The notes below the pieces were generated by a model that saw nothing but the letters and a program-made list of their open reading frames with translations, had not been told where the DNA came from and made no database searches. DNA of 21,646 nt, taken from the NCBI GenBank assembly GCA_964022095.1, contig CAXHZO010000027.1:1-21646 (forward strand), written 5' to 3'. Shown piece after piece: positions 5,476 to 11,530 of this stretch (its first letter is position 1; each line of letters opens with the position of its first letter). A program made the translations under genes and the position numbers. This stretch comes from an uncultured Arcobacteraceae bacterium (lineage in GTDB: Bacteria; Campylobacterota; Campylobacteria; Campylobacterales; Arcobacteraceae).

Positions 5476-5595
5476 ATTAAATAATATTAATCTTCATTAT
5501 TTATTAAGGAATAAAAAACTATAATCTCTGCTTAATTTGTATTTGCTGTATATAAAGTATACAAAGATATATATATTTAATAGAGAAACTTAGTA

Positions 5596-5601
5596 TATAA
5601 T
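5596..5601 (+). promoter_or_regulatory. Putative sigma70 -10 box (TATAAT) for porin 1; predicted TSS ~5607-5608
   Basis: Perfect TATAAT 84 nt upstream of the ATG at 5685. An adjacent TATACT at 5602-5607 is an alternative. Confidence 0.6.
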
Positions 5602-5606
5602 TATAC

Positions 5607-5646
5607 TGTTCTTCTAAAATTTCGAAATATATTGCGCGAATATATT
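5607..5646 (+). promoter_or_regulatory. Porin-1 5' leader element antisense to the porin-3 ribosome-binding region, followed by a hairpin with GCGCG loop
   Basis: 5607-5628 TGTTCTTCTAAAATTTCGAAAT vs 11325-11346 TGTTCTCCTAAAATTTCGAAAT (21/22 identical on the + strand, while the genes are on opposite strands). Hairpin AATATATT-GCGCG-AATATATT at 5626-5646. Confidence 0.65.
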
Positions 5647-5684
5647 AAGAATAAAAAATAAAATTAGTAATTTAAGGAATTAAA

Positions 5685-6746
5685 ATGAAAAAAATTAGCT
5701 TAGTAGCTTGTGGCTTATTATTATCTTCTTCTATGGCATTTGGTGCAGATTCAATTGATGATGCATTTAAATCAGGAACAGTATCTGGAGATATCACATT
5801 ATATGGACTTCAGACTGACAGAAAAGGTGGAAAGAAAGATGTAGGTTTCTCTGCTGCAACTACTGGTTTAGCATATGAAACTGCATCATACATGGGTTTA
5901 AATGCAAAAATGGGATTCAGAGCAGGTCACGTATTTGGTAATTCAGCAGATTTTGAAAATGATGCATTAATGACTGAAGCATATGTTAAATATGCAACTG
6001 ATGGAATTGCATTATCTGTTGGTAGACAAGAGATTGATTTAGAGTGGTTAGGTGATTACAATGAGTCTGTAGTTGCTGCAATTACTGCAATTCCAAATAC
6101 AACTATTGTTTTAGGATATGTTGATAGACAAGCTGCTGCTGATGAAGATGAAATTGGTACTTTCGGTGAAATCACTGAAGATGGTGCATATGTTGCAGAT
6201 ATTAAATATTCAGGAATTGAAGGTGTTGAATTAAACCCTTACTTTTACTCTGCTGTTGATGTAGCTGATTTTTATGGTTTAAAAGCTGGTTTCTCAACTG
6301 ATACATTTGGTGTAATTGCACAATATGCAGCTTCAAGTGAAGAGACAGGACCAGATGGTTCAATTGCTAACTTTGAAATTAGTACAGGTATTGCAGATCT
6401 TTCTCTAGCAGCTGGTTATATCACAACTGATTCAGAAGGTGGTGTTGGTTCAATTGCTGCATATGGTGATAATGTAACTCCATTTGATAATGGTGATGAT
6501 AACTATGAAACTGATGCTGATACAGTATATGGTTCTGCTGAGTACTCTATTGGAAATGCAACTGCTGGTGTATTATATGGTGAAACTGAATTTGGTTCTT
6601 CTGAATCAAGTGAGTTAAATCTTTACTCTTCTTATGCATTAACAGATTCTTTATCTTTAGGATTATTATATGTTAATTATGATTTAGAAGGTTCAGATTC
6701 TTCAGATTACCAAGATTTTGCAGCTACATTAGCTTACGAATTTTAA
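5685..6746 (+). CDS. Outer-membrane porin 1 (Opr/OprD-like family), strongly acidic
   Basis: Signal peptide, then ADSIDDAFKSGTVSG, VGRQEIDLEW motif, alternating beta-strand pattern, C-terminal YEF; AAGGA RBS at 5674-5678. Confidence 0.9.
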   Translation: MKKISLVACGLLLSSSMAFGADSIDDAFKSGTVSGDITLYGLQTDRKGGKKDVGFSAATTGLAYETASYMGLNAKMGFRAGHVFGNSADFENDALMTEAYVKYATDGIALSVGRQEIDLEWLGDYNESVVAAITAIPNTTIVLGYVDRQAAADEDEIGTFGEITEDGAYVADIKYSGIEGVELNPYFYSAVDVADFYGLKAGFSTDTFGVIAQYAASSEETGPDGSIANFEISTGIADLSLAAGYITTDSEGGVGSIAAYGDNVTPFDNGDDNYETDADTVYGSAEYSIGNATAGVLYGETEFGSSESSELNLYSSYALTDSLSLGLLYVNYDLEGSDSSDYQDFAATLAYEF

Positions 6747-8029: not shown

Positions 8030-9190
8030 TTAGAATTTGTAAGATAAGTAAACTCTTGATCTATAATCATAAGAGTAGTCACCACCAAATGTTGAATACA
8101 TGATTTTTGTAGATAAGTTTTTATTAAATTTATATTTTGCAGTAATATTTGTTTCAGAAGAATCATCACCTCCATCTGTTTCCCAATCTGTATAAGAAGC
8201 AGATAATCCTAAACCATTACCAAATTTATATCCTAAATCAAGTTTATATGCATCAGTTTGCGCATCATAGTTTCCAGAAGAAATTGGAGCTGCCGTAAAG
8301 ATCTCATCTGCCCCAGAACCTATTCCAGATTCAATCTCTGCACCAGAATCAATTGTAGTATATGCAGCTGCTGCTGAGAAACCTCCAAATTTACCAGATA
8401 ATTTTACACCGTATTCTTTATTTTTTGTTTCTACATTACCAGCTGCACCATTGTCAGATTGGTAAGTTTGTACTTCTAATGTAATTGGAGATAATTTATA
8501 TGCTGCTTGTGCATAAAAAATCTTTGCATCATCATCTAAAGAACCATTTTCTGGTTTAGCTTGTAAATATTGAGCTTCTAATGTTAAGTTATCAATAGAT
8601 TTATTTTTTGCATAGATTGTATATGCACCATCTCCTGCTTGATCAAATTTAGGTACATTACCGTTAAGGTCTGTTCTATTTTGATATTTATCAACATATG
8701 CTACAACTAAAGTAGTTTGAGGTAAATCAGTATTAGCTAAAACTATACCTTCAAAAGATTGTTTTAAAATTCTTGAACCAGAACCTGCTACTAATCTAGT
8801 TTTAATATATTGTCTACCAACTTTAACTGTAGTATTTTCAATGCCATATGATAAAAATGCTTGAGACATAACTGAACCTGATACGTCCATATCTTTTGCA
8901 TAGTTACCAGCTTCATCATCAATATTTCCTACATGCGCAGTTTGAAATGTAACTCCAGCTTTTAATCCATAGTATGAACCAGTTGTTAATGATAAGTTTC
9001 CACCATTTGACCAAATTGAAGATTTTGCATCTGCACCTGACTCTTTTTCTTTTTGAAAGTATAAAGATTTGATTTCACCTTTAACTTTAGCGTCTGCGAA
9101 AGCTTGCGCTAAAGAATCAGCTGATACGGTTGTTGTTAATCCAGCAACTGCTAAAGAAGCTACTAAACTTAATTTTGCGATTTTTTTCAT
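8030..9190 (-). CDS. Outer-membrane porin 2 (OprD/Opr-like family)
   Basis: Signal peptide MKKIAKLSLVA, ADSLAQAFADAKVKGEIK, KVGRQYI...QSFEG motif, C-terminal YKF; AGGAG RBS. Confidence 0.9.
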   Translation of the reverse strand: MKKIAKLSLVASLAVAGLTTTVSADSLAQAFADAKVKGEIKSLYFQKEKESGADAKSSIWSNGGNLSLTTGSYYGLKAGVTFQTAHVGNIDDEAGNYAKDMDVSGSVMSQAFLSYGIENTTVKVGRQYIKTRLVAGSGSRILKQSFEGIVLANTDLPQTTLVVAYVDKYQNRTDLNGNVPKFDQAGDGAYTIYAKNKSIDNLTLEAQYLQAKPENGSLDDDAKIFYAQAAYKLSPITLEVQTYQSDNGAAGNVETKNKEYGVKLSGKFGGFSAAAAYTTIDSGAEIESGIGSGADEIFTAAPISSGNYDAQTDAYKLDLGYKFGNGLGLSASYTDWETDGGDDSSETNITAKYKFNKNLSTKIMYSTFGGDYSYDYRSRVYLSYKF

Positions 9191-9283: not shown

Positions 9284-9353
9284 TAAAAAGGGGAAGTATA
9301 AAAATACTTCCCCTTTTAAGATTTCGAATTTTTAAGACACCAAAATTTGATGT
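9284..9353 (-). ncRNA. Candidate ~70-nt trans-acting antisense sRNA
   Basis: TATAAT at 9365-9360, then ACAUCAA-AUU-UUGGUGU 5' hairpin, a single-stranded segment complementary to the porin-3 RBS region, and a terminator hairpin with U-tract. Confidence 0.65.
9285..9317 (-). terminator. Intrinsic terminator (ends the candidate sRNA and probably the cytochrome c transcript)
   Basis: Perfect 14-bp stem AAAAGGGGAAGTAT-AAAA-ATACTTCCCCTTTT, ending in a U-run on the minus strand. Confidence 0.88.
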
Positions 9354-10147: not shown

Positions 10148-11323
10148 TTAGAAAGTATATTGAACGTGGATTCTTCCTCTTTCTCCGTCATTAGAACCTT
10201 CATAATCAACTTGACCATATCTTAAGTAAGCCATGAAGTTTTTAGCTGGTTTCCAAGTTAATTGACCATATACTTCATCAGTATCATTGTCTAAACCAGT
10301 ATTAGTGTTTTCAAATGTTAAAGTATTGTAGTTTAATGCTACGTTAACACCAGACATTACATCTACATTTAAGTTAGTTTTGATTGTACTTCCGTCTTTA
10401 GTACCATTAAGTTGAGTTGCCCAACCTTGGAATGCTGCTTCTGCATCTGTATCAACAGCTACAAAACCACCTTTTTTACCAGTTTGACCATAACCAATGT
10501 TACCACCAACGATACCAGCTTTAAATTTAGAACCAACAAACCATAATTTGTTGTCTCCACTTGCACCATCAAATTCTAATTGAGTATATCTAGCATATGG
10601 AGATAGTTTTGCAACACCTGCATCAATTGAAGCTTTTGCTCCTACTGAATAAGAGTCAAATGTATCATTTACATCAATGTAAGTTGCATCTAAAGCAACA
10701 CCTGCAAACTTACTCATAGCTTGTAATACAATTAAGTTTTCTTTATTAATTTCATTAGCTGTAGCAGTAGCTAAACCTAATTTAGAAACTTGATCTCCAC
10801 CCATTAAGTTAGTTTCATTCATGTATGCTCCAACTAATGTTACAGGACCTAATGTAGTAACTGCAGCAATACCTGTACCTTCTTGAGTACCAGAAATTGT
10901 ATCATAAACATCAGTTTGTGGTACATTTAAACCTTGAGTACCTAAGATAATTGAAGTATTTGCAAATCCTGTATATGTAAAGTTGTTATATACAGTATAA
11001 ATGTCTCCACCAAAATAGTTAGTAACACCATTGTTACTTGTACCATCAGAAGTGTCAGAACCACCAAGGATAGCTCCAACGTAAGTATATGATAAGTCTT
11101 CAGTTATTTTAGAGATTAAACCTAAAGCAATTTTTGTATTGTTTTGAGTGTACTCATTTGAACCAGTGTTATTATCTCTATTTCTATCATCATATCTCAT
11201 AGTTGCGTAACCTAAGATAGATGTATTTTTAATTGCATCTTCTAATGCACCTGCAGATGCAGTTGTAGTGAATCCAGCTACAGCTACTGCTGCTACTAAA
11301 CTTAATTTTGCGATTTTTTTCAT
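10148..11323 (-). CDS. porA: Outer-membrane porin 3, Campylobacter MOMP/PorA-like major outer membrane protein
   Basis: Signal peptide KLSLVAAVAVAGF, mature start ALEDAIKNTSILGYATMRYD (compare the MOMP start LEEAIKDVDVSGVLRYRYD), C-terminal YTF, highly expressed-type codons (AAC/TAC/TTC), long leader and strong terminator. Confidence 0.8.
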   Translation of the reverse strand: MKKIAKLSLVAAVAVAGFTTTASAGALEDAIKNTSILGYATMRYDDRNRDNNTGSNEYTQNNTKIALGLISKITEDLSYTYVGAILGGSDTSDGTSNNGVTNYFGGDIYTVYNNFTYTGFANTSIILGTQGLNVPQTDVYDTISGTQEGTGIAAVTTLGPVTLVGAYMNETNLMGGDQVSKLGLATATANEINKENLIVLQAMSKFAGVALDATYIDVNDTFDSYSVGAKASIDAGVAKLSPYARYTQLEFDGASGDNKLWFVGSKFKAGIVGGNIGYGQTGKKGGFVAVDTDAEAAFQGWATQLNGTKDGSTIKTNLNVDVMSGVNVALNYNTLTFENTNTGLDNDTDEVYGQLTWKPAKNFMAYLRYGQVDYEGSNDGERGRIHVQYTF

Positions 11324-11428
11324 TTGTTCTCCTAAAATTTCGAAATCTTTATCAGTTTACCGGAGCGCGCGAACTTGTTTAAAACCATTGTTTCAAAACT
11401 CTACCGGTTTACCGTTGCGTCCATTCTA
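11324..11428 (-). promoter_or_regulatory. Porin-3 -10 box (TAGAAT, 11428-11423) and ~90-nt GC-rich structured 5' UTR
   Basis: GC-rich island in otherwise AT-rich intergenic DNA; ACCGG/CCGGU pairing; repeated CGGTAAAC; AGGAG RBS at 11333-11329. Confidence 0.6.
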
Positions 11429-11471
11429 CATCACTAAATTTTAAAGTTTTCTTAAAATTGTGCTTTTGAGT

Positions 11472-11530
11472 GTTAATTAACTGTTAATTTAAGTTAACTT
11501 TTAATTAATTGATTATTAATGCTGTGTTAA
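11472..11530. repeat. Helically phased (G/A)TTAA repeats upstream of the porin-3 promoter
   Basis: RTTAA at 11472, 11483, 11493, 11504, 11515 and 11526 (spacing 11, 10, 11, 11, 11). Confidence 0.55.

Follow-up and report, generated by a model that had tools for sequence, protein, structure and literature searches.

The window analyzed here is the whole 21,646-nucleotide (nt) stretch of contig CAXHZO010000027.1 from an uncultured Arcobacteraceae bacterium (assembly GCA_964022095.1), and it carries three porin genes. Porin-1 (5685..6746, + strand) encodes a 353-amino-acid Opr family porin that scored 320 bits against NCBIfam NF033922 (cut-off 100) and matched no Pfam family at E<=0.001. Porin-2 (8030..9190, - strand) matches Porin_4, the major outer membrane protein (MOMP), and OprD, and porin-3 (10148..11323, - strand) encodes a MOMP-type porin of 391 amino acids, residues 3-156 of which match Pfam Campylo_MOMP (E 2.5e-15). 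We investigated a small hairpin in the predicted porin-1 leader (5626..5646, + strand), the loop of which is complementary to the porin-3 leader, together with the antisense block beside it. An earlier sequence-only reading of this DNA had proposed the loop as a seed for pairing between the two leaders. Throughout, G000 denotes the genome of the window (2,565,272 bp, 27.9% GC, 99.99% complete), and the other G numbers and the L numbers denote the genomes of relatives and the loci that were compared.

Hairpin and antisense block in the porin-1 leader

The predicted porin-1 promoter has a TATAAT -10 box (5596..5601, + strand), and the predicted +1 is G5608. Block 1, TGTTCTTCTAAAATTTCGAAAT (5607..5628, + strand), forms the predicted 5' end of the leader and is antisense to the Shine-Dalgarno (SD) region of porin-3; read on the + strand, it is identical to 11325-11346 at 21 of 22 positions, and a whole-genome count located CTAAAATTTCGAAAT of this block at two positions only, the porin-1 and porin-3 blocks. 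The hairpin lies approximately 20 nt into the predicted leader and reads AATATATT (5626-5633), GCGCG (5634-5638), and AATATATT (5639-5646). Because AATATATT is its own reverse complement, it forms an 8-bp A/U stem that closes a 5-nt loop. The sequence GCGCGAA, which starts in the loop (5634-5640), recurs on the + strand at 11367-11373. Reading of the sequence confirmed both the arrangement of arms and loop and this recurrence. The hairpin had been placed directly after the 22-nt block; the two are indeed adjacent but not strictly successive, because 3 nt (5626-5628) are common to block 1 and the 5' arm.

When the leader was folded from its predicted +1, the hairpin appeared in both the minimum-free-energy (MFE) and the centroid fold. 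The GCGCG loop bases were unpaired with probabilities of 0.96-1.00, in agreement with the proposed exposure of the loop, and the first ~13 nt of the leader were free. The predicted cost of opening was 0.03 kcal/mol for the 5-nt loop and 3.9 for the full GCGCGAA (7 nt), because two A-U pairs must open in the latter case. At about -6 kcal/mol, the A/U stem of the local hairpin is weak. A terminator scan revealed no terminator-like site between the hairpin (5646) and the porin-1 AUG; a gap of 6 nt separates the conserved TATAAT from GUUCUUCU downstream of it, and the coding sequence has no terminator ahead of it. Two other readings of the hairpin were rejected: it lacks a U-tract and had no match in the terminator scan as a terminator, and most loops, inspected by eye, lack the closing pair of a GNRA tetraloop at GCGA.

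Relatives of porin-1 were identified in Arcobacter, Poseidonibacter, Aliarcobacter, and Halarcobacter records. The spacing TATAAT-6 nt-GTTCTTCT recurs in the orthologous leaders, and GTTCTTCTAAAA of block 1 is kept in 18 collinear leaders. At least eight different stem sequences occur among the relatives, always around a CG-rich loop (CGCG or GCGAA). The stem in G000 is AAUAUAUU/AAUAUAUU; the hairpins elsewhere include AAUAUGUA-GCGCG-UACAUAUU (G007, L021, and L023), ACUAUUA-ACGCGA-UGAUAGU (the L026 group), UAUUAAUAU-UACGCGCU-AUAUUAAUA (L024), AAAUAUUUU-ACGCG-AGAAUAUUU (L034), UGAAUAU-AAAUUGCGAAC-AUAUUCA (L022), and AUUUGAA-AGCGCGAAUA-UUCAAAU (L025). Because a MAFFT alignment of the leaders placed the L026 group one column off, each sequence was folded individually and compared with its shuffles. 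In 11 of 15 distinct collinear leaders, which represent approximately 10 lineages and are not independent events, the motif was single-stranded within a hairpin loop on a stem of 6 or more stacked base pairs, and the mean frequency of the same configuration after shuffling of the flanks was 0.084. Judged by these comparisons, with compensatory changes in the stem around a retained CG loop, the hairpin is a real, conserved element at the RNA level.

Further motifs were observed upstream of the porin-1 genes. A palindrome, GTATATAAAGTATAC (5548-5562, + strand), precedes the predicted porin-1 start by ~50 nt and is kept as GTATATAAAATATAC in G001 and GTATATTTAGTATAC in G007; it is a likely operator. 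Upstream of porin-1 homologues of other genera (L063, L064, L065, L066, L067, and L072), TGATAATnnTTATCA-type inverted repeats are present that overlap the promoters. These repeats resemble the consensus of Fur boxes, which suggests iron control of alternative porins in those genera. No Fur-like box was seen at the window's own porin-1 copy.

The structured porin-3 leader and its complementarity to porin-1

The predicted -10 box of porin-3 is TAGAAT, preceded by TG (11423..11428, - strand), and the predicted +1 lies near 11416. This promoter block, which extends to about 11510, is kept in 12 genomes, and the 185 nt upstream of porin-3 exhibit 70-93% identity across genera. The aligned upstream region comprises the conserved promoter, then a transcribed element, and then AUUUCGAAAUUUUAGGAGAACAAAUG, and the transcribed element follows the order AACGG..ACCGG..variable hairpin..GUUCGCGCG..CCGGU..CUGA. 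A pattern scan for AACGG..GTTCGCGCG was uninformative, and the matches listed were only from GC-rich unrelated genomes; we therefore used a covariance model, R1 (11350..11419, - strand), and evaluated it on 34 aligned sequences (31 distinct). Its parts are P1 (CGG/CUG), P2 (ACCGG/CCGGU), the variable hairpin P3, and a large unpaired 3' junction. R1 occurred in exactly one copy each in 76 of 151 Arcobacteraceae genomes, belonging to 12 of 22 genera. In G002 it gave no match, yet the G002 MOMP leader (L238) has a UCGCGCG variant.

Double-sided changes were observed in 10 of the 16 base pairs of R1. The proportion of paired cells was 91.9%, compared with 83.8% in shuffles (0/500 as high), and sliding of the pairing partners lowered it to 28-61%; the alignment underlying these values was fitted to the model, which favors the structure. 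Searching the whole window with Rfam 15 yielded no match at the gathering score, and at E<=1 the leaders and a small RNA (sRNA) candidate described below gave nothing beyond noise-level matches to snoRNA models (E 0.6 and 0.43). R1 is probably a previously undescribed RNA with a cis-regulatory role of its own. A contig from a run labeled RNA-Seq covers 10160-11400, that is, the porin-3 gene and 77 nt of its leader including the complementary site. This is a weak hint that the porin-3 leader is transcribed, the RNA status of the run being a guess.

The complement of the loop motif, UUCGCGC (11367-11373, - strand), lies 44-50 nt upstream of the porin-3 AUG and inside the 9-mer GUUCGCGCG (11366..11374, - strand), which was invariant in 34 of 34 leaders, as were GTTCGCGCG, AACGG, and CTGA. 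In the R1 consensus, the 9-mer is unpaired between P3 and the 3' strand of P2. Its unpaired probabilities in G000 were 0.90, 0.83, 0.84, 0.86, 0.78, 0.89, 0.18, 0.13, and 0.97; thus, GUUCGC was largely free (0.78-0.90), and the next G and C were mostly paired (0.13-0.18). The sequence-only reading had named burial or poor conservation of UUCGCGC as outcomes that would count against it, and neither was found. According to the fold model, the 9-mer is not buried, yet not strikingly exposed.

We then considered the energetics of pairing. In the G000 cofold, 21 bp of block 1 formed together with UGCGCGAAU:GUUCGCGCG, and the change in free energy (ddG) was -23.0 kcal/mol, compared with -4.4 +/- 1.8 in 100 shuffles, none of which was as low. 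The GCGCGAA:UUCGCGC duplex was assigned -10.4, and exposing its two strands would cost 3.9 and 2.1. Block 1 has as its partner the ribosome-binding site (RBS) region of porin-3, AUUUCGAAAUUUUAGGAGAACA (11325..11346, - strand), which stops 1 nt short of the AUG; the 21 bp include AGGAGAAC and end 2 nt before the AUG. The ddG of block 1 was also significant, with 0-1 shuffles as low, in G001, G007, G014, L022, L034, and L036, and not significant in any of the four computed leaders without the motif. L045, L024, and L026 were left out of the 10 pairs in one set of leader pairs, and the cofold calculation cannot model loop contacts.

Because CGCG is self-complementary, a motif shared in sense had to be excluded. 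In 17 of 22 distinct leaders, the loop context matched the 9-mer over a longer stretch in antisense than in sense; the other five were ties, and no leader showed the reverse. The GCGCGAA loops match 7 nt in antisense and 5 nt in sense, the corresponding values for GCGAAC are 6 and 3 nt, and the UGCGAAC loops of L022, L039, and L042 have only GCG in common with the sense strand compared with 6 nt for the antisense strand. In G002, the leader of the porin-1 homologue (L068) exhibits a 23-nt perfect antisense match to the RBS region of its own MOMP gene (L238). The U-run of block 1 has three U in both G002 partners and four U in both G000 partners, and these matching runs indicate, on the sequence evidence, co-evolution or gene conversion of block 1.

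Both strands of G000 contain 33 copies of GCGCG and five of GCGCGAA, and the Markov expectations were 34.4 and 3.8, respectively. The sequence-only reading had stressed the scarcity of GCGCG in such AT-rich DNA. The motif is in fact rare, but it is as frequent as expected, because CpG is depleted genome-wide and the motif is subject to no special avoidance. For a GCGCGAA copy to lie on the given strand no more than 60 nt from the second copy of the block, the calculated probability was about 6e-5, which agrees with the earlier judgment that the match in both leaders is unlikely to be due to chance. Besides the copies in the two leaders, two GCGCGAA copies lie in coding sequence (one on C4 and one at C5:82770, where by eye the open reading frame continues through to its stop) and one lies in a terminator loop on C13. 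This terminator (C13:~46270-46300) stands between genes that by eye resemble transporter and cyanase genes, and its loop reads UUCGCGC on the transcribed (-) strand; it is probably unrelated to the porin leaders. In five other genomes, GCGCGAA was not above the level of the reversed control.

Two further sequence resemblances were noted around porin-3. Motifs of the GTTAAC/ATTAAC type repeat, by eye, upstream of the MOMP promoter (~11440-11510, - strand) and of sRNA promoters (L329, L330, L333, and L254), and these promoters may share a transcription factor. In addition, AAAAATTCGAAATCTT at 9318-9333 (- strand), just ahead of the terminator of the cytochrome c gene, resembles AAAATTTCGAAATCTT, which occurs at 11334-11349 (+ strand) and in the leader of a porin gene on contig C5.

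Free-standing sRNA-like genes and other leaders with CG loops

A motif-pair scan located an sRNA-like gene in G000 (C13:49601-49699, + strand; L254:1002-1100). The candidate comprises a TATAAT box, a hairpin GGGAA-AUUGCGAAC-UUCCC, a second GCGAA, a single-stranded AAUCUCCUAAAUU, and a Rho-independent terminator. The same architecture with other stems was observed in genus g20 (four inspected) and genus g18 (five inspected), and sRNA-like genes besides the G000 copy lie at L329:1124-1213 (-), L331:159-254 (+), L332:136-225 (+), and L311:1484-1596 (+). Their common design is a promoter with a TATAAT box, a 5' hairpin with a GCGAAC loop, a second GCGAA(C), a single-stranded UCUCCU anti-SD sequence, and a terminator. 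In nine of nine pairs, the loops are complementary over 6-9 nt to the 9-mer region of the MOMP leader of the same genome (8 nt in G000; 9 nt in G018, G097, and G053). The C13 candidate was predicted to cover the SD sequence, the AUG, and the first codons of both porin-3 (ddG -17.8) and porin-2 (ddG -18.2), and 0 of 60 shuffles were as low. It follows a gene whose end, by eye, looks like an OmpR-type response regulator.

The C13 candidate had no Rfam match, and a DNA similarity search, G001 included, revealed no convincing homologue. Because no homologue was found at the DNA level, the sRNA "family" is an architectural resemblance, and its homology is not demonstrated. The motif-pair scans served to locate these genes and not as statistics: CGCGA or GCGAAC within 60 nt of TCTYCTAA gave four matches in G000 compared with 3.2 expected, and the GCGAAC..TCTCCT matches in 151 genomes, which include a multi-copy repeat, were in many of the genomes not clearly above the reversed control.

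CG loops were also observed in other RNAs. A third CG-bearing porin leader of G000 lies on contig C5 (~91180-91267, + strand; L237:~380-468), ahead of a 388-amino-acid porin with OprD and Opr matches. It starts with the hairpin CUAUAUA-UUGCGCG-UGUAUGG, and AAAAUUUCGAAAUCUU follows 19 nt later beside its SD sequence. At approximately 1500 (- strand) of L285 (G003) and L276 (G020), a long hairpin of about -31 to -33 kcal/mol, conserved between the two genera, carries GCGCGAA in its apical part after a TATAAT-like box and before a U-rich tail, and it may be another small RNA.

A proposed two-site antisense interaction and its alternatives

The sequence itself, its conservation, the covariation of the stem, the invariance of the target, the predicted accessibility, and the duplex energies were computed directly. 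On the basis of these comparisons and fold models, we tentatively propose, with confidence somewhat short of even, that the leader pairs in trans with the major-porin mRNA at two antisense sites, the hairpin loop being the second of them. The leader of the alternative (Opr-family) porin mRNA would present a single-stranded CG pentaloop, extendable to GCGCGAA, and this loop would pair with GUUCGCGCG, the invariant and largely unpaired site in the junction of the structured MOMP leader. The predicted 5'-terminal anti-RBS block, UGUUCUUCUAAAA..., 21 nt in G000, would be the other contact. Block 1 would occlude the SD sequence of the MOMP mRNA, the loop contact would add affinity, specificity, or speed, and the outcome would be a porin switch, in which transcription of the alternative porin lowers MOMP translation. 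The interaction would be independent of Hfq. The Hfq-free setting assumed by the sequence-only reading was borne out: Pfam searches for Hfq and ProQ gave no match in G000, and the control genomes were positive. We infer the transcription start, the meeting of the two RNAs, the direction and sign of the regulation, and any kinetic "seed" role of the loop. Concerning the last of these, the loop had been held to nucleate the pairing; nothing in the analysis shows this, and the free 5'-terminal 21-nt block could suffice alone.

Several observations weigh against the two-site proposal. The self-complementarity of CGCG makes every loop that contains it a complement of the target, and only 5 nt are truly in the hairpin loop. 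The accessibility of the 9-mer is modest (mean unpaired probability 0.60, compared with a leader mean of 0.52, in 29 leaders), and the stability of the whole-leader fold was unremarkable (z 0.83 and 0.17). Because the compared sequences are related, the counts overstate their independence; they represent roughly 10-12 lineages. The G004 leader pair was no better than its shuffles (24/60), and the MFE cofold of G001 used block 1 only and left the hairpin closed. The two blocks follow the same order in both leaders of G000 on the + strand, as the earlier reading stated, but not all relatives keep to it: L039, L042, L043, and G014 have the two motifs the other way round, and in their leaders UCUCC itself is inside a hairpin loop. 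The leader of the G002 porin-1 homologue lacks any CG motif, so that the second block is dispensable there. R1 was found in 5/5 genomes with CG-positive porin-1 leaders and equally in 5/5 genomes whose porin-1 homologue lacks the CG motif, so its co-occurrence does not discriminate, and it was found in G010, where no porin-1 homologue was detected at E<=1e-20. The porin-1 leader would have to act on a probably very abundant mRNA. Its +1 is only predicted, and 5480-5682 was not covered by any contig of four public runs, which are all present as contigs and whose depths cannot rank genes. Finally, the 5' hairpin of the C5 porin leader carries its UUGCGCG loop in the sense orientation.

Alternatively, the hairpin might act only in cis or through a third party, either as a 5'-proximal stem-loop protecting the porin-1 mRNA or as a CG loop that binds a protein or RNA with affinity for the CG-rich MOMP junction as well; the complementarity between the leaders would then be a by-product of the self-complementary CGCG core. 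All three CG-bearing porin leaders of G000 read (U)UGCGCG or UUCGCGCG in sense, the C5 leader repeats the CGCG-19 nt-UUUCGAAA spacing of porin-3 exactly, and five of the 22 leaders exhibit no antisense excess. Moreover, something else must constrain the 9-mer where porin-1 has no such loop. We nevertheless consider this explanation rather unlikely, because the antisense match exceeded the sense match in the other 17 leaders and never the reverse, and GCG is all that the GCGAAC loops share with the sense motif. In G005, the closest orthologue of the C5 porin (57% identity) has retained a 5' hairpin, but its loop lacks CG, so a simple stabilizer needs no CG, and the sRNA-like genes pair the same antisense motif with an anti-SD sequence. 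That the GCGCGAA match is a mere chance coincidence appears highly improbable. The motif is only a 7-mer, its genome count equals the Markov expectation, and it was no commoner than the reversed control in five other genomes; however, the low co-location probability and the retention of both loop and target across genera already disfavor chance.

An origin at the DNA level was also considered, in which the 3' half of the MOMP leader (the RBS block and CGCGCGAAC) was long ago copied in inverted orientation into the region upstream of porin-1, where it serves as sites for a DNA regulator or persists as a decaying relic, with no RNA-RNA function. The - strand of 5607-5646 does resemble a shortened MOMP leader (..UUCGCGC..AUUUCGAAAUUUUAGAAGAACA), ATTTCGAAAT forms a 10-bp palindrome, as GCGC and CGCG form shorter ones, and the equal U-run lengths in G000 and G002 could reflect gene conversion. 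However, only the two blocks are retained across proteins at 45-70% identity and the flanks have changed, the stems covary around the loop in a manner that a half-site operator does not need, the MOMP blocks are part of the transcript, at about +45 to +95, and one of them serves as its RBS, and UCUCC occupies a hairpin loop in other lineages; this origin is therefore improbable. We regard as quite improbable, in turn, a purely cis-acting translational control in which the 5' U/C-rich block pairs with the AAGGAA SD sequence of porin-1 itself in the manner of a thermometer and the hairpin is a spacer or support. Several MFE folds that included untranscribed upstream bases did pair GUUCUUYU with AAGGAA, but the expected number of pairs between nt 1-10 and the SD window was 2.03, compared with 1.79 when the 5' end was shuffled, and at least three pairs formed in only 2/15 leaders. 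In the G000 MFE fold the 5' end is unpaired, AGGAGAAC of MOMP is a much better match for the block than the AAGGAA of porin-1, and the conserved CG loop would be left unexplained.

The two-site interaction proposed here can be compared with several known systems. MicF is an antisense RNA encoded beside ompC that represses ompF, the other major porin gene, in enterobacteria. The present arrangement resembles it in that a porin-linked trans RNA has imperfect complementarity to the RBS region of the other porin, with the logic of a porin switch; the complementarity covers the porin SD sequence, significantly so in G000 and in G001, G007, G014, L022, L034, and L036. Unlike MicF, the antisense sequence here would belong to the mRNA of the alternative porin itself, at its 5' end, with no terminator before the AUG, a second contact would lie far upstream in a structured leader, and no Hfq was found in G000. 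A separate terminated transcript is not predicted at the porin-1 leader, but one is predicted for the C13 sRNA-like gene.

The sequence-only reading had likened the loop to CopA/CopT of plasmid R1 and RNAI/RNAII of ColE1, which are cis-encoded and fully complementary and make loop-loop contacts on both sides. In both cases a short GC-containing loop carried by a stable stem could make the first contact, and pairing would not require Hfq. By contrast, the loci here are 5.7 kb apart and would act in trans, the complementarity is partial (about 21-22 + 7-9 nt), and, in the predicted structures, the regulator bases are in a hairpin loop and the target 9-mer is in the P3-P2 junction or an internal loop; the likeness is thus an analogy and not membership in this class. 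A YUNR U-turn loop motif speeds pairing in kissing-loop antisense systems. The GCGCG loop with its flanks, UUGCGCGAA, contains no YUNR, and some orthologue loops (UUAACGCGAUG) do contain one, so the motif is not consistent. OxyS-fhlA is a two-site kissing complex in which OxyS is a stand-alone sRNA and both contacts are loop-loop. It likewise involves two short separated complementary stretches, one over the RBS and one distant; in the present case, however, one contact would be a free 5' end.

Staphylococcus aureus RNAIII presents C-rich hairpin loops to SD sequences, and an anti-SD sequence in a hairpin loop is similarly found in the porin-1 homologue leaders L042 and L043. In Listeria, the 5' untranslated region of hly mRNA reportedly interacts in trans with prsA2 (PMC8722363), so that, as proposed here, the untranslated region of a coding mRNA pairs with another mRNA. 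Both systems differ from the present one in genes, phylum, and the probable sign of regulation, and the present case consists of thermodynamic predictions and comparative sequence data only. By analogy, the logic is closer to that of MicF and trans-acting mRNA leaders than to that of CopA/CopT.

Three elements appear to be undescribed, namely the R1 leader with its invariant 9-mer, the porin leaders that combine an anti-RBS block with a CG loop, and the two-motif sRNA-like genes, because they had no Rfam matches and no description of them was found in a limited search of the literature on Arcobacter porin sRNAs, Aliarcobacter butzleri transcription start sites, and Campylobacter jejuni porA data from RNA interaction by ligation and sequencing (RIL-seq). 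A broader extrapolation, which we hold to be doubtful, is that an Hfq-free porin network exists in Arcobacteraceae, in which GUUCGCGCG of the MOMP leader would be a docking site for GCGCGAA/GCGAAC loop seeds on sRNAs and alternative-porin leaders, each with an anti-SD block, and porin messages would repress each other through two-site contacts. Antisense control of enterobacterial porins relies on Hfq and stand-alone sRNAs. To our knowledge, Campylobacterota are without Hfq, and how their RNAs find their targets is poorly understood. If the proposed interaction is true, these porin leaders would offer a small system in which to study how RNAs pair through loops without a chaperone and how mRNAs communicate directly with each other.

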